Sequence record: MT129654.1
Length of the DNA: 64,000 nucleotides
Reading direction: 5' to 3' (one strand)
From: Escherichia phage MN04
Shown here: positions 520 through 61,805 of the stretch, piece by piece
How positions within the stretch are numbered: the stretch's first letter is position 1
Layout of the letters: every line of letters starts with the position of its first letter
The notes under the pieces: model-generated
Database searches by the model: none
What the model was told of the DNA's origin: nothing
What the model saw: the letters and a program-made list of their open reading frames with translations, nothing else
Made by a program: the position numbers and the translations under genes

Positions 520-707
520 TGGACTTATTTGATATGTTTGTCATTCCGGACCCTGAGCCTGAAACAACTCAGGAGCCGCCTGTTGACCTTGTCAACGAAC
601 TTGATATGATTATACAGAAGCACGGTTTTAAGTTGCCTAAAGATGCCCTGGCTGACCTTGCTTCTTACTATCAAGACCCTCCACCATGGGCACCTTGGGT
701 AAAATAA
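519..707 (+). CDS. Hypothetical small acidic protein
   Basis: 62-aa ORF, start overlaps previous stop (TAATG); no recognisable motif. Confidence 0.35.
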   Translation: MDLFDMFVIPDPEPETTQEPPVDLVNELDMIIQKHGFKLPKDALADLASYYQDPPPWAPWVK

Positions 708-940
708 TGAATTGGCTAACTAATATACCTACATCGGCATTAGATATCGACCGTAAACAAGCCCGTAAGGAAATCGAGCAAAAAAATATTCAGGCAAAAG
801 CTCCTAAGATTACGGCCAAGGCGCCGGAAATAAAAAGCTCTTATGAAACAAAAAGCTCTTATACTTCATATACCCAATCCCTAACAGGCCAAGCCGCTGA
901 CATTGCGGTGTTTGGCGTCCCACTCGGTGTGTTTAAGTAG
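686..940 (+). CDS. Hypothetical protein
   Basis: 84-aa ORF in six-frame track; start uncertain. Confidence 0.3.
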   Translation: MGTLGKIMNWLTNIPTSALDIDRKQARKEIEQKNIQAKAPKITAKAPEIKSSYETKSSYTSYTQSLTGQAADIAVFGVPLGVFK

Positions 941-968
941 TTTACACCTCCTCCCTTCATGTTATAAT
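940..968 (+). promoter_or_regulatory. T4-type early promoter (-35 GTTTAC, extended -10 TGTTATAAT)
   Basis: GTTTAC at 940-945, 17-nt spacer, TATAAT at 963-968; 25 nt upstream of the 993 ORF. Confidence 0.6.
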
Positions 969-992
969 GACCTCTAAATCACTGGAGGTCAT

Positions 993-1562
993 ATGAACAT
1001 CGAACAAAAATGTCTTTATCAAGACCGAATCAATTCCAAATTTTCAAAATCTGAACAAGCGTTGTTAGAGAAATGTCTGGATGCCAAAAAAGACCCTAAC
1101 TTCCATTACGACCTAGACAAACTGGTTCGTAAGCATGTCACTTCAGTGGTTCCGGTAGAGCTTTATCGTGGGATTACCACCAGAGAACTTGGGCAATTAG
1201 AGCTCCTTTCAGTAGGATGTCAATGGTCTCCTGGCCGGGTTACTTCTTTTAGTACACAATACTCTCAGGCTTGCCAGTTCGCAGGGTCATGGGAATATGG
1301 AACCAAAACCATTTTAAGTCTCAGGAATGCACCCTTCATTTTTGACTACTACAATCATGCTATCGACCTTGTTCTTGCAGGGAGTGCGGACGAACTTGAA
1401 ATAGATGAAACCCGTATTGACCTCTATGATATGGTCGAAACCGAATGTGAGTTCATGGTCTCTAGCCTATCACGATTTGAGATTGTTGAAATCGAAACTA
1501 TCAAAAGAGACCCATACGACATCGAGTACAAAATAATTCATTTAAAAATGTTGGATTTTTAG
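993..1562 (+). CDS. modB: Mono-ADP-ribosyltransferase, ModA/ModB family (ModB position by synteny)
   Basis: 189 aa; ART triad pattern LYRGI ... TSFST ... ECEFMV (R / S-x-S / E-x-E); tandem with a second ART upstream of srd-dda as in T4. Confidence 0.55.
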   Translation: MNIEQKCLYQDRINSKFSKSEQALLEKCLDAKKDPNFHYDLDKLVRKHVTSVVPVELYRGITTRELGQLELLSVGCQWSPGRVTSFSTQYSQACQFAGSWEYGTKTILSLRNAPFIFDYYNHAIDLVLAGSADELEIDETRIDLYDMVETECEFMVSSLSRFEIVEIETIKRDPYDIEYKIIHLKMLDF

Positions 1563-1616
1563 TTTACAGGCAAGGAAGCTTGTGGTACTATCTTTCTATC
1601 AACTGAGGAGAATAAT

Positions 1617-2231
1617 ATGTTATATCCAAGCCATAAATTAGCAGAATTTATCAACAATGCCAAATGCGACGATTTCCGTGAGAATACCCAGATAGAAATT
1701 GATGAGGTGTATTCTGATTTAGAACAGAGCACGCTCTGGCAGTGTATGGAAAATAAACCTGATTCTATCCAGGAAACTCTGAACAAAATTATTCGTAAGA
1801 ACCTGACTTCTGTAGTGCCTGATAAGCTCTATCGCGGTATATCTAAAAAGACCCTGAAGTATCTAGAGTCCACAATGTGTGTGGGTGCGGTAATTGAATT
1901 CGACCGCGTGATGAGCTTCTCTAAAGACTTCAACGTAGCAAGGAATTTCGCATCTTATAACTTCTACGGCACATTTAATATCTTTTGTATTAATGATGCG
2001 CCATTTGTGTACAATTATCAGGAAGAAATCTTTAAAATGTTATGTGCTGCGCCCCCTGAAGAGTTCCCAGGCGCATTTCCTGAATCTACACGTGTAGCAA
2101 ACTTACAATTAATTAATGATGAAGATGAGATGATGTTCCCTGCGGGAACTACGCTGCGCGTAGACTCTATTGAGAGAAATCCTAAATGGAATAATTACAC
2201 CATTTGGAATCTTTCCGTTCTTTCTTACTGA
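1617..2231 (+). CDS. modA: Mono-ADP-ribosyltransferase, ModA/ModB family (ModA position by synteny)
   Basis: 204 aa; LYRGIS ... MSFSKDF ... EDEMMFPAG triad pattern; tandem paralog of the preceding ORF. Confidence 0.55.
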   Translation: MLYPSHKLAEFINNAKCDDFRENTQIEIDEVYSDLEQSTLWQCMENKPDSIQETLNKIIRKNLTSVVPDKLYRGISKKTLKYLESTMCVGAVIEFDRVMSFSKDFNVARNFASYNFYGTFNIFCINDAPFVYNYQEEIFKMLCAAPPEEFPGAFPESTRVANLQLINDEDEMMFPAGTTLRVDSIERNPKWNNYTIWNLSVLSY

Positions 2232-2300: not shown

Positions 2301-2329
2301 GTTTACTTTATTAAGCAACATGATACTAT
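2301..2329 (+). promoter_or_regulatory. T4-type early promoter
   Basis: GTTTAC 2301-2306, 17-nt spacer, TACTAT 2324-2329 within conserved catgatactatagacctatcaa leader. Confidence 0.6.
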
Positions 2330-2368
2330 AGACCTATCAACTAATCGTCCGTAAGATGAGAAAATATC

Positions 2369-3118
2369 ATGCCTACTATTAAAACTAACGATGAATTTGA
2401 GTTAAAGGTTTACAACCGCCGCAAACACACCAAAGCTTCTGCTTATAAACGCGGTAAGGACTTCAATCTGTCCAGTAAGTATGTTCGTAGACTTCTCGAA
2501 CAAAAAGTGTGCGCTTATTCAGGCGAGTACTTTGATGAAAATTCAGTTAATGATAAGATTTCATTTGAACGTTTTAACAACGATATCGGTTATATTGAGG
2601 GTAATGTAATCCCAGTTAAAGTTAAGTATAACAGCTTACGTGCCGATTTGTCCCTTGATGAACTGAAACGTGCTCAGACTCGTTTAGCAGTTCGTATTTC
2701 AGGTAGTTCTAAAATGCCTAATAGTTTTAAAGTTACTCCTGATAACTATTATAAAATCCGTAAAATCGTTAAAAATATAAAAGATACCCAAAGAGGTCTT
2801 AAAAAACGTGAAAAACGTCTTAAAGACCTTATTAAATCGGGAGCTACTGATAAGACTCCTTCTGTTATCGCGGTTAAGGCCCGTATCCATGGTTCTAACG
2901 CTTCAATAGGTACTATGGAAAAAGGTCTTAAATCTTTAATTGGTGGGCCTGATTGGCGTGTTAAGTTTAAATTGTCTGAAGCAGAAACGCGTTACGATAT
3001 GTATGATAAAATTATTCAAGGTCTGGAGCGTTTAGAACACCTTTCTTTTATTGACAAATTGAAGTTGAAAAAAGGTCTTCCGCTGAATGCTTCAATTTTT
3101 TCACTGATTAGAGGTTAA
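2369..3118 (+). CDS. srd: Srd-like early protein (by size and position between modA and dda.1)
   Basis: 249 aa, same length class and position as T4 Srd; own early promoter; identity not checked by alignment. Confidence 0.4.
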   Translation: MPTIKTNDEFELKVYNRRKHTKASAYKRGKDFNLSSKYVRRLLEQKVCAYSGEYFDENSVNDKISFERFNNDIGYIEGNVIPVKVKYNSLRADLSLDELKRAQTRLAVRISGSSKMPNSFKVTPDNYYKIRKIVKNIKDTQRGLKKREKRLKDLIKSGATDKTPSVIAVKARIHGSNASIGTMEKGLKSLIGGPDWRVKFKLSEAETRYDMYDKIIQGLERLEHLSFIDKLKLKKGLPLNASIFSLIRG

Positions 3119-3122
3119 CGTG

Positions 3123-3419
3123 ATGTACTATGCATACGTATTAGTTCACAAGGACAAAGATGGGTATGAAATTCCATTAGAAGATGCCGGTGAAGTGACT
3201 TTGTATTCGACAAAGATTGGAGCCGACACTGCTTTAGAGGCTTATGAAATCTCAACAAAAAGATATCTTCGGCTTGGACGCCTTGAAACAGTGTGCACGC
3301 CAAGAAAGTGGTGGTTTGATAAGTGGGAAACTAAAACGGTTTTTCCTACCAAAGAACGGGCCCGAGAATTAAAATTGATTTTAGACACTTTATATGTTAA
3401 GCGAGTAAAATTGGCATGA
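3123..3419 (+). CDS. Hypothetical protein (dda.1 position)
   Basis: ATG at 3123 (track starts at GTG 3120); stop overlaps dda start. Confidence 0.4.
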   Translation: MYYAYVLVHKDKDGYEIPLEDAGEVTLYSTKIGADTALEAYEISTKRYLRLGRLETVCTPRKWWFDKWETKTVFPTKERARELKLILDTLYVKRVKLA

Positions 3420-4747
3420 TTACATTTGAAGACTTGAATATTGGGCAACGGACGGCCTTTAAAGAAATCATTGAAGCTATTAAACGACGTAAGGGCGAAT
3501 GGATTACATTGAATGGTCCTGCTGGTACAGGTAAAACGACCCTTACTAAATTTATCCTTGACCACTTAGTCAAGAATGGCGAACTCGGAGTTATTTTGAC
3601 CGCACCTACACACGCGGCCAAGAAGGTATTGTCGAAACTCGCAGGCCAAGAAGCATCGACAATCCACCGAATCTTAAAGATTAACCCGACTACATACGAA
3701 GACCAGGATATTTTTGAACAACGTGAAGCTCCTGACTTGAGCAAATGTAATGTTCTTGTGGTCGACGAAGGCTCAATGATTGACGGTAAGTTGTTTAAGA
3801 TTATCGAAGCTTCAGTTCCGCCATGGTGCACTGTACTGGGGATTGGCGACCGAGCTCAGTTACAACCTGTAGAACCAGGAAGTGATGGAAGTCCTCAGTT
3901 GTCTCCATTCTTTACCCATCCTAAAATTAAACAGCTACACCTTACTGAAGTAATGCGTAGTAATGCTCCTATCATTGAGGTTGCTACTGAAATCCGTAAT
4001 GGTGGATGGTTCCGAGATTGTATATTCGAAGGTCACGGTGTCCATGGTTTTAAATCTCAAACGGCTTTAAAAGATTTTATGATGAATTATTTTTCCATCG
4101 TAAAAGATGCTGATGCCTTGTTTGAGAACAGGATGTTTGCTTATACAAATAAATCAGTTGAAAAACTGAATAGCATTATTCGTAAAAAGCTTTATGAAAC
4201 CGATACGCCTTATATCAAGGGCGAAATCCTCGTGATGCAAGAGCCTTTTATTAAGGAACTTGAATACGACGGTAAGAAATTCTCTGAAACCATTTTTAAT
4301 AACGGCCAGATGGTTCGTATTTTAGATGTGAACCACACCTCATTGTTCTTGTCTGCCAAGGATGTAGGCACTCGCCAGATGATTAATTACTGGGACCTCC
4401 AGGTTGAATCTGTTGATGAGGATGACGAGTACTATGTAGAACACTTGAAAGTTATTGATGAGGCTTCAGTTGAGAAGTTCCATTATTTCTTGGCTAAGGT
4501 GGCTACTGAGTACAAGGCTATGCGTGGAACAGGTAAGAAACCTAAGTGGGCTGATTTCTGGAAAGCTAAGAGAATGTTCACTAAGGTTCGAGCTCTTCCG
4601 GTGAGCACTGTCCATAAATCACAGGGTCTTACTGTCCAAAACAGTTTCATCTATACTCCGTGCATGCACATGGCAGATGCCAATTTAGCTTCACAGCTGG
4701 CTTATGTTAGTATTACCCGTGCTCGCACTGATGCCTATTATGTTTGA
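3416..4747 (+). CDS. dda: Dda DNA helicase (SF1B)
   Basis: 443 aa; Walker A GPAGTGKTT; long stretches matching T4 Dda as remembered (LTAPTHAAKK, PWCT..GIGD, TPCMH); dda.1-dda-dexA synteny. Confidence 0.95.
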   Translation: MITFEDLNIGQRTAFKEIIEAIKRRKGEWITLNGPAGTGKTTLTKFILDHLVKNGELGVILTAPTHAAKKVLSKLAGQEASTIHRILKINPTTYEDQDIFEQREAPDLSKCNVLVVDEGSMIDGKLFKIIEASVPPWCTVLGIGDRAQLQPVEPGSDGSPQLSPFFTHPKIKQLHLTEVMRSNAPIIEVATEIRNGGWFRDCIFEGHGVHGFKSQTALKDFMMNYFSIVKDADALFENRMFAYTNKSVEKLNSIIRKKLYETDTPYIKGEILVMQEPFIKELEYDGKKFSETIFNNGQMVRILDVNHTSLFLSAKDVGTRQMINYWDLQVESVDEDDEYYVEHLKVIDEASVEKFHYFLAKVATEYKAMRGTGKKPKWADFWKAKRMFTKVRALPVSTVHKSQGLTVQNSFIYTPCMHMADANLASQLAYVSITRARTDAYYV

Positions 4748-4754
4748 GGAAAAT

Positions 4755-4994
4755 ATGATTAAAGTAACTAAAGACCAATTTTATAAGTTGAAATTCGAGA
4801 CGGAATATATTATTAAGGTCAACCCAGACGATACAAATATCCGTGGCAAGGCTCATAAGGTCTTGCATTCACTTAAAGAGATTGAAAGTGATTTTATTGC
4901 AGTGCAAAAACTGATGGACGACAATATCTCTTCGGTTTATATTGAAGACTATACTGTTGGCCAAATCCGAGACCTTATGAGGTACGTTAAATGA
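4755..4994 (+). CDS. Hypothetical protein (dexA.1/dexA.2 position)
   Basis: 79-aa ORF from ATG 4755 with SD ggagg-like (tgaggaaaat) upstream; stop overlaps dexA start. Confidence 0.4.
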   Translation: MIKVTKDQFYKLKFETEYIIKVNPDDTNIRGKAHKVLHSLKEIESDFIAVQKLMDDNISSVYIEDYTVGQIRDLMRYVK

Positions 4995-5665
4995 AAGATA
5001 TAATTATTGACTTCGAAACCTTTGCCACTACCCAAAATGCAGCAGTTATCGACCTCGCCGTAATTGCTTATGACCCTAATCCAGAGGTAGTAGAATCGTT
5101 TGAAGAGCTTACTCAACGCGGTCTTCGTATTAAATTTGATTTGGCTTCTCAACGCGATAAACGTCTGTTCTCTAAAAGCACATTGCAGTGGTGGAAAGAA
5201 CAAGGACCTGAAGCACGTAAAAACCTGGCTCCGTCCGAAATTGATGTGAGTACTTCTATCGGCATTGGTAATTTCCTGGAATACTGCCGTAAAAACGAAG
5301 TGGACCAATGGAAATCCCAGATGTGGTGCCGCGGAATGTCCTTTGACTTTCCGATCTTAGTCGACCTTATTCGTGATGCTTATCGTTCTGAAGGTGTTCC
5401 TGAGAACGAAATCGATACAACTAAGTTGGAACCGGTTAAATTCTGGAACCAACGTGATATCCGCACGGCCATTGAAGCCTATTCACTGACGCGTGGATTA
5501 AGCATGTGCCCTCTGCCTAACGGAACATTGAATGGCTTTGTAGCCCATGACTCTATCCATGACTGTGCTAAGGATATCTTGATGCTGAAATATGCCCAAC
5601 GATATGCTTTAAACCTGGAAGATGTTCCTGAGAATCCAGACCCATTAAGTGTAAAAAATCGATAA
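4991..5665 (+). CDS. dexA: Exonuclease A (DnaQ-like 3'-5' exonuclease)
   Basis: 224 aa; N-terminal MKDIIIDFETFATT exo motif I (D-x-E); size and position match T4 DexA. Confidence 0.85.
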   Translation: MKDIIIDFETFATTQNAAVIDLAVIAYDPNPEVVESFEELTQRGLRIKFDLASQRDKRLFSKSTLQWWKEQGPEARKNLAPSEIDVSTSIGIGNFLEYCRKNEVDQWKSQMWCRGMSFDFPILVDLIRDAYRSEGVPENEIDTTKLEPVKFWNQRDIRTAIEAYSLTRGLSMCPLPNGTLNGFVAHDSIHDCAKDILMLKYAQRYALNLEDVPENPDPLSVKNR

Positions 5666-5669
5666 AAGT

Positions 5670-5698
5670 GTTTACTTCTCCTCATGACATGATATTAT
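5670..5698 (+). promoter_or_regulatory. T4-type early promoter embedded in an 11-bp inverted repeat
   Basis: GTTTAC 5670-5675, TATTAT 5693-5698; arms ttctcctcatg (5676-5686) and catgaggagaa (5711-5721) bracket the -10 and the SD. Confidence 0.6.
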
Positions 5699-5725
5699 CT
5701 ACCCTATCAACATGAGGAGAACAAA

Positions 5726-6229
5726 ATGAAAATTTATCGAGTTGAGTCATCGTTCAGTATCTTAGATGATGGAAACGCTATCACAATACGACGAGACCTC
5801 TGTACTCAAATGACTCCGTATAGAAGTACAATGGACTCATGGAGTGAAGGCTGGTTATTGGAAGTAGGTTTCGACAGACCCAATTTTAAGCATCGTCATA
5901 CCATCAATAAAAATATTCCACTACCAAGTCAAGATAAGTTGCTGGTAGAAAATTCTAATAAAACCATTAGAACTAAGTGGAAACGGCCTGATTATGAAGA
6001 CTGTGATGATTATATTCCAGGTTGGTTTGTTAACCTCTACCATTTTGCTTTTGCCAGTGAGTATGATATGATGCGCTGGTTCACTCGTGAAGAGCGTAAA
6101 GAATTATCTTCTAAAGGATTCTATCTTGCCGTTTACGAAATACCTGAAGATGAGGTAGTCATTGGTGACCGCCAAGTAATGTTCCGCAAGTCCCATGCTG
6201 AACTCGTAGATTTTATTGAAATGAGATAA
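5726..6229 (+). CDS. Hypothetical early protein (MotB position by synteny)
   Basis: 167 aa, similar size to T4 MotB (162 aa); position dexA -> motB; no motif evidence. Confidence 0.4.
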   Translation: MKIYRVESSFSILDDGNAITIRRDLCTQMTPYRSTMDSWSEGWLLEVGFDRPNFKHRHTINKNIPLPSQDKLLVENSNKTIRTKWKRPDYEDCDDYIPGWFVNLYHFAFASEYDMMRWFTREERKELSSKGFYLAVYEIPEDEVVIGDRQVMFRKSHAELVDFIEMR

Positions 6230-6231
6230 TT

Positions 6232-6783
6232 ATGAAATTTAATTATAATCCCAAATACACACCGAACCCGGCGGCCAAATTGATTGATTTTGATGTTTTA
6301 AGCACTTATGCAGCCCCTATTGAACCATTAGAAATTAAGGAAACCACTATGACTACTCAGACTATCGAAATCGGTAAAACCTACAAACTGGTTGAACCTG
6401 AAATTAAAACTAAGGCCTTGATTTCTGGTTATAAAACTCTGACTGATGTTTTTGGCGAAGGCGAATTTATTGTTGAAGAATTCGCTAAAAGTGAGTGGTT
6501 TGACAAATCTTACGTCATCCACGGTCGCCGGTTAGATAATAACAAAATAGAGAAAAACCTGGTTTATGAAGATGAATTTGGGCTTTTCCGTGAAGTCGGA
6601 GTCGAACAAGACCCTACAGACCTGTTGTGTGCTGCTGTGGCTATCCGTCGTCCTTTTGATAATCCTATCTGTGGTTGGGTAACAGACCAGTGGATTGAAG
6701 ATGGTGTTGAACTCCTGAACGTTGTACATGCTGGTGATTTTAGCGTAGTACCTCGTAGTGCAGTGGTTAATGTATTGAATTAA
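6232..6783 (+). CDS. Hypothetical protein, paralog A of a tandem pair
   Basis: 183 aa; C-terminal block GWVTDQWIEDGVELLNVVHAGDFSVVP shared with the next ORF. Confidence 0.5.
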   Translation: MKFNYNPKYTPNPAAKLIDFDVLSTYAAPIEPLEIKETTMTTQTIEIGKTYKLVEPEIKTKALISGYKTLTDVFGEGEFIVEEFAKSEWFDKSYVIHGRRLDNNKIEKNLVYEDEFGLFREVGVEQDPTDLLCAAVAIRRPFDNPICGWVTDQWIEDGVELLNVVHAGDFSVVPRSAVVNVLN

Positions 6784-40520: not shown

Positions 40521-40814
40521 ATGAGAGTCTGTAGAGTTGTTAACAAGTATAAAGAAGATTTTGATGTCAATATCCAGCGTGGAACTATGTGGGGTAATCC
40601 ATTTAAAGACGGTACCCGCGAGGAAAACATCAAGAACTTTAAAGAATACTTTATTGCTAAAATAAAATCGGGTGAAATTAAAAGAGAACATCTTGAAACC
40701 CTTAGAGGTATGCGAATAGCGTGTACCTGTAAACCTAAGGACTGTCATGGGGATGTGATAGCCCTGGTTGTTAACAAACTTTTCAAAGATACGTTCTCAT
40801 TAGAAGACCTATAA
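40521..40814 (+). CDS. Hypothetical Cys/His-containing small protein
   Basis: 97 aa; GNPF motif and CTCKPKDCHGD; unassigned. Confidence 0.4.
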   Translation: MRVCRVVNKYKEDFDVNIQRGTMWGNPFKDGTREENIKNFKEYFIAKIKSGEIKREHLETLRGMRIACTCKPKDCHGDVIALVVNKLFKDTFSLEDL

Positions 40815-57590: not shown

Positions 57591-59678
57591 ATGACCGAAC
57601 AATTAAATGAAGTGTTTGAGTCCGAAGGCACCCTGCCTACTGTAAACTTAAACCCAAAACTTAAAGTACCCCAGATTTGGAAGATTGGCGACGCCGAATC
57701 CCAATTAGTTGCTCGTATGGTATCTTATGCCTCTGAAGGCGATGCTATTAAACAGGTTAAATTAGGTGATAAATATGCCCACGTTATTTTGATGAGTTTA
57801 TCAGCTAAAGGTACTCCAGCCGAACTTAAAGGTGGATTAGGCCCTACTCCTATTGATGCTATTAATACCATTTTCGACGTAGTATTCGAACAAGTTAAAA
57901 AGCTTCGTATGGATGCTGTGATGTTCCGTTTTCCAACCAAGAAAATGAAAGGACAAGGACCTATTGTCCAACGGATTATCCAACGTTTGGTAGCACAGAA
58001 AACCGGTGGACGTTTTAAAGTAGTTCCAGCCATGTACCAATTTACCGGTAAACATACTTATATCCTAGTAGTTCGTAAACAAGCTGATATCGAAGATATC
58101 AAAGGTATGCCTGGAATTAATGCCGAATTATATACTAAGGTAGATTCTGATGTTGGTGAAGTTTATATTTCTAAAAAAGAAGGCGCTCAGGTTACTAAAG
58201 AAACCGCTATTGCCGGCAGTATTGCTAAAGTTGAAGAACGTCGCACTGATAAAATGGTTATAACCAAGACTAAGATTTCTCGTCGTGCGATTGCGGCAAG
58301 CCAGTCATTAGAAGCAGACCGTAATGAAGGTGAATTATTTCAGAAATATGAACAAACTGCCAATGAGTTCAGTGCGCCTGCTACGGCGGAATTAATTCCA
58401 CAAGCAGCCGAAGTTGAATTATCATTATCATCCGAAACAGCTAAGGATAAGCTGGCTACGGCTATTGATTTTAAAATTTATAATACTATGGATGATTCAT
58501 TTAAATTTGCGGATGAAGTTTCTTACGGTGATAAAATTAACTCTTCTTTAGAAAAATTTGTCAAAAAAATTAAAAATGAAAAAACCACGTCAGTTAAAGC
58601 TTTAGCCGCCTTTGTTGAAGCTGCTAATGAAATCGCAGAATCTATTAAAAGTGATTGGTTTGAAGATTATAGAAAAGACAATTTCCATTTGGAAAAAGAG
58701 ATATTGAATGAAAACAGTGAAAGAGTATGGAAACAACGTAAGTCTTCATTCTTGTCTAAGATAATGTATACATACGCTATAGAATCAACTAGAGAAATTC
58801 TTAATATAACAACATCTCGAGACCCTAAACAATATACACTTGCAGAAAAACGAGCTATCAGAGAATACGCCTCTTCAGCTTATATTGATATTAACAATGT
58901 CCTTCTTGGCCGTTATAAACCGGGCTTTTATGAAGTTTTGGACGAAAGCGAAGTTAAACGTGCTATTGATGGAATGGATTCTGCCTTTAAAAATGGTGAC
59001 CGTTTACCTGAAGGAATAATGGTTTATAGAGCACAATCTTTGCGCGCGCCTATCTACGAAGCATTAGTTAAAAATAAGGTATTCTATTTTAGAAACTATG
59101 TTTCAACCTCATTGGCTCCAATCATTTTTGGTGGCTTTAAAGAGAATGCGGCTATTGGTCTTGCTTCCGATGATGTTCGAAAAGAATTAAACATTGATAA
59201 TAATGACGAAGGCGTTACCATCTCTGCTAGTCAAGTGCGTACACATATGTATGCGCCGGATCAAATCCGTGTTGATGTTGGCTGGGCTATTAGTGGCGCT
59301 CATAAGGTTAACGTGATTTATCCTGGCCAATTAAGCATGCATGCCAACGAAAAGGAAATAATTTTACCACGCGGGCTACTTGTAAAAATAGATAAAATCG
59401 TGGATGCATCAGCCAATACTGGTTCTGGGGCGGTTTCTAACAATAAATTTATTCAAGCTGAAGTTATGACATCAGATGAGCTTCAAGAATCTGTAGTGTA
59501 TGATGGTGACGTACTAATGGAAACCGGTGAGTTGGTCGTATACCAAGATGACTTCGATACTTCCGAAAGCCCTGTATCTTTTGATTCATTTGTTAAATCT
59601 ACACGGTTTGACGTACTGCCTCTTTTGGCTTCATGCATAGACCTCTATGGCATACCAGAAAAATTCATCCAAGGGTAA
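57591..59678 (+). CDS. alt: Alt-type ADP-ribosyltransferase (virion-injected), copy 1
   Basis: 695 aa (T4 Alt 682 aa); C-terminal ART pattern MVYRAQ ... YVSTSL ... EKEIILPRG; position downstream of ligase as in T4. Confidence 0.8.
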   Translation: MTEQLNEVFESEGTLPTVNLNPKLKVPQIWKIGDAESQLVARMVSYASEGDAIKQVKLGDKYAHVILMSLSAKGTPAELKGGLGPTPIDAINTIFDVVFEQVKKLRMDAVMFRFPTKKMKGQGPIVQRIIQRLVAQKTGGRFKVVPAMYQFTGKHTYILVVRKQADIEDIKGMPGINAELYTKVDSDVGEVYISKKEGAQVTKETAIAGSIAKVEERRTDKMVITKTKISRRAIAASQSLEADRNEGELFQKYEQTANEFSAPATAELIPQAAEVELSLSSETAKDKLATAIDFKIYNTMDDSFKFADEVSYGDKINSSLEKFVKKIKNEKTTSVKALAAFVEAANEIAESIKSDWFEDYRKDNFHLEKEILNENSERVWKQRKSSFLSKIMYTYAIESTREILNITTSRDPKQYTLAEKRAIREYASSAYIDINNVLLGRYKPGFYEVLDESEVKRAIDGMDSAFKNGDRLPEGIMVYRAQSLRAPIYEALVKNKVFYFRNYVSTSLAPIIFGGFKENAAIGLASDDVRKELNIDNNDEGVTISASQVRTHMYAPDQIRVDVGWAISGAHKVNVIYPGQLSMHANEKEIILPRGLLVKIDKIVDASANTGSGAVSNNKFIQAEVMTSDELQESVVYDGDVLMETGELVVYQDDFDTSESPVSFDSFVKSTRFDVLPLLASCIDLYGIPEKFIQG

Positions 59679-59681
59679 ATA

Positions 59682-61805
59682 ATGGAAAATTTAAACGAAG
59701 TTTTTGATAGTGATTCCGCTAAAAACTATCCAGTAACAAATCTTAAGCCGGGCTCCGGTATCCCACAGATTTTCTCTATCCAAGCACCAGGTAACGATAA
59801 CCTGGTTGCTCGTATGGTATCTTATGCGTCTCAAGGAGACGCTATTAAAATGGTTAAGCCAGGCGACAAATATGTCCATGTTATTTTAATGAGTTTGTCG
59901 AGCAAGGGTGCTCCAGCCGAACTCAAAGGTGGTCTTGGTTCCGACCCACTTGGTGCATTGAATACTATTTTTGATACGATATACGAACAAGTAAATAAAC
60001 TTAAAATGGATGCGGTTTTGTTCCGTTTCCCTACCAAGAAAATGAAAGGTAAGGGCCCTACTGTTCAGCGTGTATTAGCTCGTTTGGCGATGGCACGTAC
60101 CGGTGGTAAGTTTAAAGTTGTCGATGATATGTTCCAGTTTAGTGGTAAACATACATACGTTCTTTTAGCACGTCGTGGCACTAATATCGAAGATATCAAG
60201 GGTATGCCTGAAATTGATGCGGACCTTTATACCAAGGTTGAGTCTAAAGTCGGTGAAGTTTATGTTTCTAAGAAAACCGGCCAGGCCGTAAGTAAGGTCG
60301 AAGCCGTAGCGGCATCTATTGCACAGGTTGAAGAGAAACGTACCGATAAGGCTGTTATCTCTCGTACTAAAATTTCCCGTCGTATGGCTGCAGCAGCGCA
60401 GTATTCTACTGCCGAACCTGAAACTTTATCACCTAAAGAATTGCAGGTTTATAACGAGTTTGAAGCTTCTGTCCCTGTTCACTCGGCCGAAGGCCCTGAG
60501 AACGAAGGTATTGAGCAGATTAGTCAGAACTTTAAAAAAGGTGCTATTACTAAAATGCGTCAGGCCTCTCAGTTTAAATCTAAGAGTGAGGACCTTGCCA
60601 ACTTTAGATACACCATTGCTCTCACGCACGCTTTAATGACTGATAGTAAATTTAAACTAAATTATGCTAATAGAGATAAACAAGGGTTTGAAATTTACTC
60701 TAATAATATGGCATTTTTTAATACGGAAGTCGATAGACTTTTAAGTGGCCTTTCTCAAATCAATACTACCAATAGTCTGGATATTATTAAGAGAATTGTT
60801 AATAACCTGAGTGCCCGTTTTCAGGGGTCTCCTTCAGAGAAAGCATCCCGAATTGCTTTCGCTATGGAAGCCGTTTATAAACTGATTAACGATTCTATTA
60901 GCGATGCATATGCTTATTCAGGCGAGCTCATTAAACCTAAGGGCTTGACCAAAGACGAAAGTAATGCCATTATTGAATATTGTGCGGCTGAATATGCTCC
61001 TATGAACTTATTCCTTTTAGGTAAACCTGAATCCGAAAACAATACAACAGCTATTAAATTGATTAAGGATTTAGACTCAGCATTTACCAAGGGTATTAAA
61101 CTTCCTAAGGGTACTATTTTGTATCGTGGTCAGGATTTACCATACAAAATTCTGCGCCATAATATTGATAACAAAACATTTTACTTTAAGAACTTTGTGT
61201 CCGCTTCATTAAAGCCTAATATCTTTGGCGAATTTGGTAAAAATTATATGGCCCTCGACAACCAAGCAGTTTTTGTTGGCGATGAAGGTTCTTTATCCTC
61301 CGCTGATGAGTTGTTTAAATTAGCCAGTGGTAGTTCATCTGATGTAGGCGAAGTTGATGATGAAGAGGTAGAATGGGAAGAAGACGAGTTCGGTAATCCA
61401 ATTGCACCTGAAGGCCCTGCAGACAGGATTGCTGAAATCGGTATGGTTATTCGAGGTGCTGAAGCAGTTAAAGTTATCGCTCCTGGTGACCTTACAGAAT
61501 ATTCCGAAGAAGCAGAAATTATCCTTCCGCGAGGATTATTGTTGAAGGTTGATAAAGTAGCGGCTTTTGCTATGAATGATAGAGTATCTCACAAATACCT
61601 TATGGAAGCTACAGTGACATCTCCTTCAGAACTCAGTGGGTCCGTTTACGATGGTGACCATCTGATGGAAACCGGTGAAGTTAAATTGATGAATGGGTTT
61701 AAAGAATTCCTAGTTTCAGAATCTGTTTCAGAAAGTAATGAGGCTATGGAAATCCTTGCTGCATCTTTGGACATCTCTTCTTTACCAAATAAATTCAAAA
61801 TGTAG
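59682..61805 (+). CDS. Alt-type ADP-ribosyltransferase, copy 2 (tandem paralog)
   Basis: 707 aa; N-terminal ~230 aa near-collinear with copy 1; C-terminal ILYRGQ ... FVSASL ... EAEIILPRG. Confidence 0.75.
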   Translation: MENLNEVFDSDSAKNYPVTNLKPGSGIPQIFSIQAPGNDNLVARMVSYASQGDAIKMVKPGDKYVHVILMSLSSKGAPAELKGGLGSDPLGALNTIFDTIYEQVNKLKMDAVLFRFPTKKMKGKGPTVQRVLARLAMARTGGKFKVVDDMFQFSGKHTYVLLARRGTNIEDIKGMPEIDADLYTKVESKVGEVYVSKKTGQAVSKVEAVAASIAQVEEKRTDKAVISRTKISRRMAAAAQYSTAEPETLSPKELQVYNEFEASVPVHSAEGPENEGIEQISQNFKKGAITKMRQASQFKSKSEDLANFRYTIALTHALMTDSKFKLNYANRDKQGFEIYSNNMAFFNTEVDRLLSGLSQINTTNSLDIIKRIVNNLSARFQGSPSEKASRIAFAMEAVYKLINDSISDAYAYSGELIKPKGLTKDESNAIIEYCAAEYAPMNLFLLGKPESENNTTAIKLIKDLDSAFTKGIKLPKGTILYRGQDLPYKILRHNIDNKTFYFKNFVSASLKPNIFGEFGKNYMALDNQAVFVGDEGSLSSADELFKLASGSSSDVGEVDDEEVEWEEDEFGNPIAPEGPADRIAEIGMVIRGAEAVKVIAPGDLTEYSEEAEIILPRGLLLKVDKVAAFAMNDRVSHKYLMEATVTSPSELSGSVYDGDHLMETGEVKLMNGFKEFLVSESVSESNEAMEILAASLDISSLPNKFKM

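Follow-up and report, generated by a model that had tools for sequence, protein, structure and literature searches.

The question raised by this locus is what two adjacent open reading frames (ORFs) carrying the same R / S-x-S / E-x-E pattern encode, and how far the names and activities of the corresponding phage T4 enzymes can be carried over to them. Both ORFs lie at positions 993-2231 of a 64,000-nucleotide stretch of Escherichia phage MN04 (sequence record MT129654.1), referred to here as the window, for which a sequence-only reading had proposed two tandem ADP-ribosyltransferases (ARTs) of the ModA/ModB type. Our analysis bears this proposal out, as the ORFs were found at exactly these coordinates, match PHROG 832 and are modelled with an ART fold. 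ORF1 and ORF2 very probably encode paralogous stand-alone ARTs of the phage Mod family, about 190-205 amino acids (aa) long and within the R-S-E (cholera-toxin/C3-like) clade, and correspond to the modB and modA-position genes, respectively. Both are genuine, intact genes, though ordinary among T4-like phages: the GenBank record of phage JS98 already contains them with their names and family, and work on T4 has established the enzymology.

993-1562, plus strand: ORF1, modB homologue, 189 aa, predicted Mod-family R-S-E ADP-ribosyltransferase
ORF1 catalytic codons, plus strand: R59 1167-1169; S85 1245-1247; S87 1251-1253; E151 1443-1445; E153 1449-1451
1617-2231, plus strand: ORF2, modA-position homologue, 204 aa, predicted Mod-family R-S-E ADP-ribosyltransferase
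ORF2 catalytic codons, plus strand: R73 1833-1835; S100 1914-1916; S102 1920-1922; E169 2121-2123; E171 2127-2129

The family assignment is carried by profile searches, in which PHROG 832 ('RNA polymerase ADP-ribosylase') matched ORF1 at E 3.5e-37 over residues 6-188 and ORF2 at E 1.5e-44 over residues 14-204. The precomputed annotation PF26816.1 is present on all homologues retrieved. Every motif peptide quoted in the sequence-only reading is present, as ELYRGIT, VTSFSTQ and ETECEFMV in ORF1 and as KLYRGISK, VMSFSKDFN and NDEDEMMFPAG in ORF2. Short degenerate motifs of this kind are common by chance, and the Pfam-A copy gave no significant match, so that the three blocks could in principle be coincidental patterns in unrelated ORFs; we consider the probability of this to be practically nil. 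The R..SxS..ExE pattern could be chance but homology could not, because the PHROG E-values reach 1e-37 to 1e-44, ORF1 is 100% identical to JS98 ModB and the motif columns are kept across 87 sequences. Together with identities of 33-39% to T4 ModA/ModB over nearly the full length and the dominance of ART folds among the Foldseek results, these profile, identity, fold and conservation data already refute a chance match.

Searches against more general collections returned less. The best Pfam-A score was for ADPrib_exo_Tox against ORF2 (E 0.096, not significant), and an NCBIfam scan gave nothing useful for either ORF. Sequence searches of PDB chains, using both single sequences and the family profile, found no significant ART match; a sub-threshold match to XopAI was confined to the ExE block, which aligns with XopAI EQEVLFP. 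No deposited ModA or ModB structure was present among the PDB chains searched, and no ModB crystal structure exists (preprint bioRxiv 10.1101/2025.07.11.664405). When 1.84 billion cluster representatives at 50% identity were searched with a profile, only 179 proteins passed E <= 1e-3 and only 21 passed E <= 1e-30, comprising stand-alone proteins of ~160-230 aa as well as stretches within very long proteins of 1000-7000 aa. Such a small number of matches is in line with Mod forming a compact family of the R-S-E clade (PMC9503650).

Structure prediction, one of the checks that the sequence-only reading had suggested, places both proteins within the same clade. AlphaFold2 models built with a 46-sequence alignment were confident, with a predicted local distance difference test score (pLDDT) of 90.4 and a predicted template-modelling score (pTM) of 0.85 for ORF1, and corresponding values of 91.9 and 0.86 for ORF2. 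In Foldseek searches against the PDB, all 50 listed matches for each model were R-S-E-clade ADP-ribosyltransferases, including C3bot/C3cer, Certhrax, Vip2, iota Ia, CDTa, C3larvin, Plx2a, Vis, HopU1, XopAI, ExoS/T and Tre1, at probability 1.00, E ~1e-5 to 1e-6 and template-modelling (TM) scores of ~0.5. Against predicted viral structures, the ORF2 model matched Mod proteins of T4-like phages at TM 0.74-0.86, with Sf22 ModA (Tequatrovirus) at 0.86. The C3-like, Vip2, iota and CDTa toxins and the effectors HopU1, XopAI and ExoS/T thus share both the fold and the R / S-x-S / E-x-E arrangement with ORF1 and ORF2, although sequence identity is only 10-18% and there is no sequence-level significance to these Pfam/PDB families. 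Unlike the toxin and effector ARTs, Mod proteins carry no secretion or translocation domains and are phage early proteins that act inside the infected cell.

The positions of the catalytic residues were mapped from a four-way alignment of ORF1, ORF2, T4 ModB and T4 ModA:

ORF1: Arg R59; Ser S85; ExE E151/E153
ORF2: Arg R73; Ser S100; ExE E169/E171
T4 ModB: Arg R73; Ser S99; ExE E171/E173
T4 ModA: Arg R72; Ser S96; ExE E163/E165

By the terms of the sequence-only reading, a structure-based alignment that lacked the catalytic triad would overturn the proposal. Both ORFs instead carry the complete triad, aligned with essential residues of T4 ModA/ModB and located on the expected strands of the ART-fold models. 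Among the aligned residues, R73 and E173 of T4 ModB and E165 of ModA are experimentally required for activity (PMC10468400; PMC11404850; bioRxiv 10.1101/2025.07.11.664405). Across the Mod-family alignment, the Arg, the Gly that follows it and the first Ser are invariant in 87/87 sequences, and the ExE is present in 86/87, the exception being a truncated protein. In the ORF1 model, strand 56-60 carries R59, strand 84-87 carries S85/S87 and strand 153-156 carries E153; the ORF2 counterparts are strands 71-74 (R73), 99-102 (S100/S102) and 171-174 (E171). In both models the Arg thus belongs to the first core strand and the S-x-S to the next, which is followed by a helix, with the second Glu at the start of a later strand, a predicted layout that is the canonical R-S-E arrangement. 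Separately, an hhalign comparison of the Mod profile with the two Alt ART domains encoded elsewhere in the window aligned the ExE block alone, at a probability of 3%, and was unusable as a triad alignment.

The genomic setting agrees with this assignment. Over nucleotides 900-2300 the window shares 99.7% identity with Escherichia phage JS98 (Dhakavirus, Tevenvirinae), a difference of ~0.3% of nucleotides with nothing of substance among them, and the JS98 record (EF469154 / NC_010105) labels ORF1 'modB ADP-ribosylase' and ORF2 'modA ADP-ribosylase'. The ORF1 protein is 100% identical to JS98 ModB. Relative to the JS98 record the window is in reverse complement: it runs from ~13.4 kb back past the first base of that record and continues into its far end. 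Pfam and PHROG searches identify the neighbours as an Mrh-like protein (28-519), ModA.2, Srd (2369-3118), Dda.1, Dda and DexA, and the order modA.2 - modB - modA - srd - dda.1 - dda - dexA is common to JS98, T4 and one Mosigvirus record. Both ORFs accordingly occupy the Mod-family position between mrh/modA.2 and srd-dda.1-dda. The JS98 modB/modA genes and their orthologues in Dhakavirus, Gaprivervirus and Mosigvirus are identical or near-identical in sequence and alike in gene order and annotation.

Selection and expression signals bear on whether both copies are functional. In pairwise comparisons of six Dhakavirus/VR5-like genomes, the ratio of nonsynonymous to synonymous substitution (dN/dS) was 0.04-0.13 for ORF1 and 0.00-0.17 for ORF2, and both genes are under purifying selection. 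Each ORF is preceded by its own promoter-like and Shine-Dalgarno-like elements, the former matched against the T4 early-promoter pattern (sigma-70, GTTTAC / TGnTATAAT-type):

941-968, plus strand: early-promoter-like site before ORF1, GTTTACA - 16 nt - TG-TATAAT (TG extended -10), 11/12 consensus positions
984-989, plus strand: Shine-Dalgarno-like GGAGGT, 3 nt 5' of the ORF1 start codon, invariant in the alignment of related loci
1563-1591, plus strand: early-promoter-like site before ORF2, GTTTACA - 17 nt - TG-TACTAT, 9/12 consensus positions
1605-1610, plus strand: Shine-Dalgarno-like GAGGAG, 5' of the ORF2 start codon, kept among Dhakavirus loci

Upstream of ORF1 both hexamers are kept in five Dhakavirus/VR5-like loci and one Mosigvirus while the spacer varies, and upstream of ORF2 the GT(T/G)TAC and TACTAT hexamers are kept from Dhakavirus to Mosigvirus while the spacer has diverged. 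Hexamers that persist as their spacers diverge provide modest footprint evidence for putative promoter sites. The number of promoter-like matches in the region (12) is not above the 9.9 expected from shuffled sequence. The gap between ORF1 and ORF2 is 54 nt, whereas T4 modB and modA overlap by 4 nt (ATGA). A terminator-like hairpin in this gap (1564-1585) falls within the promoter-like spacer and is not kept in Mosigvirus, and was taken as chance. Beyond ORF2, a third early-promoter-like element of the form GTTTAC ... TACTAT was read from the sequence at 2303-2333 (plus strand), just 5' of srd and unlisted in the scan, and its -10 variant resembles that before ORF2.

One of the two paralogues might nevertheless have lost catalysis or be decaying, and act as a scaffold or decoy instead of an enzyme. 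The candidate would be ORF1, which is without the first N-terminal helix (~15 aa) present in ORF2 and both T4 proteins and belongs to the more divergent clade. Yet every triad residue is kept in both proteins, both are confidently modelled as complete ART domains, both are under purifying selection, including ORF1 with its low dN/dS, and each retains its own conserved promoter-like site and ribosome-binding site, which makes an inactive copy highly improbable.

Deciding which of the two genes is modA and which is modB is less straightforward. A neighbour-joining (NJ) tree with 200 bootstraps resolved the shallow clades, grouping the ORF2 clade with T4 ModA, which sits on a long branch, and placing ORF1 on the ModB / single-copy side. 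Since this tree left the deep split unsupported, reciprocal scoring with clade hidden Markov models (HMMs) was used alongside pairwise BLASTP:

BLASTP, ORF1 and T4 ModB: 85.1 bits, 33% identity
BLASTP, ORF1 and T4 ModA: 32 bits
BLASTP, ORF2 and T4 ModB: 90.1 bits, 33% identity
BLASTP, ORF2 and T4 ModA: 86.3 bits, 39% identity over 166 aa
BLASTP, T4 ModA and T4 ModB: 59.7 bits
BLASTP, ORF1 and ORF2: 88.6 bits
Clade HMM, ORF1: 77.6 bits against T4 ModB, 36.5 bits against T4 ModA
Clade HMM, ORF2: 95.6 bits against T4 ModA, 88.4 bits against T4 ModB
Clade HMM, T4 ModA: 96.8 bits against the ORF2 clade, 31.1 bits against the ORF1 clade

ORF1 is, by position and best match, the predicted counterpart of T4 ModB, and its own scores are clearly ModB-like. 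It resembles T4 ModB (P39423) in locus, lying directly 3' of modA.2 and 5' of a second mod gene, and in domain size class; R73 and E171/E173 of T4 ModB align with its R59 and E151/E153, and T4 ModB is its best T4 match. It differs in being 18 aa shorter, without the first N-terminal helix and only 33% identical, and the spacer that follows it carries its own promoter-like site where T4 modB overlaps modA. ORF2 is the predicted counterpart of T4 ModA by position and by the preference of T4 ModA for its clade, although it is nearly equidistant from T4 ModA and ModB. It lies, as T4 modA does, immediately upstream of srd, and R72 and E163/E165 of T4 ModA align with its R73 and E169/E171; unlike T4 ModA, its N-terminal segment is ModB-like (EQSTLWQCMENK vs EQSVLWQCMEAK). 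The assignment is best described as a putative positional orthology, in agreement with three of the four score comparisons. The sequence-only reading had expected alignment to the T4 proteins to tell which gene is which; such comparisons point ORF1 towards ModB but hardly separate the two for ORF2, whose clade-HMM scores against the two T4 proteins are near-equal.

Several points weigh against reading the pair as Mod enzymes equivalent to those of T4. The Pfam-A copy, which is without PF26816, gave no significant match for ORF1 or ORF2, the two proteins share only 33-39% of residues with the T4 enzymes, and the placement of the triad comes from sequence alignment together with secondary-structure positions in the models. 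The putative promoters are consensus matches backed by conservation, from which early transcription of ORF1 and ORF2 would follow. In the remaining reciprocal comparison, T4 ModB reached 118.5 bits with the ORF2 clade but 89.2 bits with the ORF1 clade, and support for the deep ModA/ModB split in the NJ tree was only ~20%. Because T4 ModB prefers the ORF2 clade and the deep nodes are so poorly supported, one-to-one orthology and the transfer of targets are insecure.

These last observations also feed a different history, in which the JS98/Mosigvirus pair and the T4 pair arose by independent duplications of one ModB-like ancestor, with no true orthology and with a division of targets that could not be transferred from T4. 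Many T4-like genera have one mod gene at this locus, ModB-like by T4-based HMMs, the deep tree nodes are unsupported, T4 ModB is closer in score to the ORF2 clade than to that of ORF1, and ORF1 is about equally near ORF2 and T4 ModB (88.6 and 85.1 bits). A T4-specific duplication would not, however, predict that T4 ModA is nearer ORF2 than T4 ModB, and T4 ModA is much nearer ORF2 (86.3 bits) and the ORF2 clade (96.8) than T4 ModB (59.7) or the ORF1 clade (31.1). ORF1 in turn favours ModB over ModA two-fold in bits, and the ModB-like gene is upstream and the ModA-like gene downstream in both lineages. We therefore regard independent duplication as improbable and retain the positional assignment of ORF1 to modB and ORF2 to modA.

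Within this assignment, the scores make the ORF2 clade look like a slowly evolving 'central' form, with ORF1 and T4 ModA as the divergent ones. In T4, ribosomal protein S1, EF-Tu and trigger factor are the targets of ModB, for which NAD-capped RNA can also serve as a substrate in the reaction termed RNAylation (PMC10468400), and ModA attaches ADP-ribose to Arg265 on each of the two RNA polymerase alpha subunits (PMC2988021); why only ModB RNAylates is, according to the authors of the T4 work, not understood (PMC10468400). As ORF2 is near-equidistant from the two T4 proteins, the division of targets between the JS98 enzymes cannot be read from sequence. The pair may divide labour differently from the T4 enzymes, with ORF2 as an ancestral-type enzyme, alike close to T4 ModB, to T4 ModA and to the lone Mod of single-gene phages and combining ModB-like activity (on translation factors, possibly including RNAylation) with ModA-like activity, and ORF1 as a fast-diverged, N-terminally shortened paralogue with other host targets. 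We consider this arrangement possible but rather unlikely. The statement in the sequence-only reading that ModB attaches RNA to host proteins is true of T4 ModB (PMC10468400), and for ORF1, a homologue with 33% identity, it may hold by analogy.

Comparison across relatives shows that the locus itself is variable. A single mod gene lies between mrh/modA.2 and srd in many T4-like genera, including Merlin-like phages, CC31, Jiaodavirus JD18 and Krischvirus, and these single-copy genes are ModB-like by T4-derived HMMs; copy number at the mod locus therefore varies between one and two. In a vB_EcoM-VR5-like locus compared with JS98, the ORF2 orthologue (3625-4239) shows dN 0.15 and dS ~1.2 and the ORF1 orthologue (3001-3570) dN 0.03 and dS 0.56, an unequal divergence that suggests mosaic exchange within the mod locus. 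In four loci of pEC-M719-6WT.2-like phages the downstream Mod is ORF2-like and the upstream copy is very divergent, scoring ~125 bits with the family HMM, against ~250 for JS98 ORF1, yet keeping the R/S/ExE residues.

NAD-dependent ADP-ribosyl transfer is known for T4 ModA and ModB (PMC10468400, PMC11404850), and a mode of action for the two proteins can be proposed by analogy. Host RNA polymerase would transcribe ORF1 and ORF2 soon after infection. Each enzyme would then bind NAD+ through contacts made by the Arg and the Ser-x-Ser, would use the second Glu of the ExE as its catalytic residue, and would transfer ADP-ribose to arginines of host proteins, a modification that would help redirect host transcription and translation.

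The sequence-only reading had further counted four ARTs and one candidate ADP-ribose hydrolase in the window and had described this as an unusually large investment in NAD-dependent modification. The count of four ART genes is correct, as the two Mod genes are joined by two Alt paralogues, each scoring above the ADPrib_exo_Tox gathering cut-off of 23.4 bits:

57591-59678, plus strand: Alt paralogue 1, 695 aa; PHROG 802 E 1.2e-257; Pfam ADPrib_exo_Tox 100.1 bits; VYRAQ / VSTSL / EKEIILP
59682-61805, plus strand: Alt paralogue 2, 707 aa; PHROG 802 E 9.2e-251; Pfam ADPrib_exo_Tox 65 bits; LYRGQ / VSASL / EAEIILP

The two are 41% identical by pairwise BLASTP, retain intact R / S-x-S / E-x-E motifs and are both annotated alt in JS98; Alt paralogue 1 is a predicted ADP-ribosyltransferase of the virion-packaged type. 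The description as unusual does not hold up. All four genes are annotated in JS98, and in phage T2 alt likewise has another gene of alt length in tandem behind it (2391-4484 and 4488-6545 of the T2 stretch), which is annotated only 'hypothetical protein'. A query with the Alt ART domain matched 1802 places in 1221 phage records. Second alt matches are common in Tevenvirinae, where four ARTs thus look commonplace, judging from these match counts, and T4, with its single alt, is not typical.

The hydrolase was not located among the ORFs scanned: a regular-expression search of all six frames found no Nudix box, and a Pfam scan of ~45 further window ORFs found no Macro, NADAR or ADP-ribosylglycohydrolase domain. 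The sole other domain linked to ADP-ribose (ADPr) found in the window is DUF4326, in an NrdA.1 homologue at 40521-40814 (plus strand; E 7.9e-22, 78 bits against a cut-off of 25). Iyer et al. predict that DUF4326 processes ribose-linked phosphates of ADPr derivatives (PMC9503650), and this protein may or may not be the candidate hydrolase that had been meant.

Two features flanking the pair were recorded alongside this analysis. Between modA.2 and modB, at 686-940 (plus strand), lies a small conserved ORF of 77-84 aa with a probable start at ATG 707, which matches phrog_14077 at E 9.7e-36; it is unannotated in EF469154, where a gap is left, and relatives annotate it as a hypothetical protein. 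On the other side, Srd (2369-3118, plus strand) matches PHROG 1400 (Srd anti-sigma factor) at E 6e-92, and its N-terminal ~110-130 residues also match HNH / endonuclease VII-type PHROGs at E 1e-15 to 1e-6.

The value of ORF1 and ORF2 is thus mainly comparative, as members of a small Mod family in which T4-like genera carry one or two mod genes. Outside Tequatrovirus, a gene is called 'modA' or 'modB' chiefly for where it lies rather than for a clean orthology. For efforts to extend RNAylation or modification of RNA polymerase alpha beyond T4, both paralogues matter, and annotation alone is not to be trusted.

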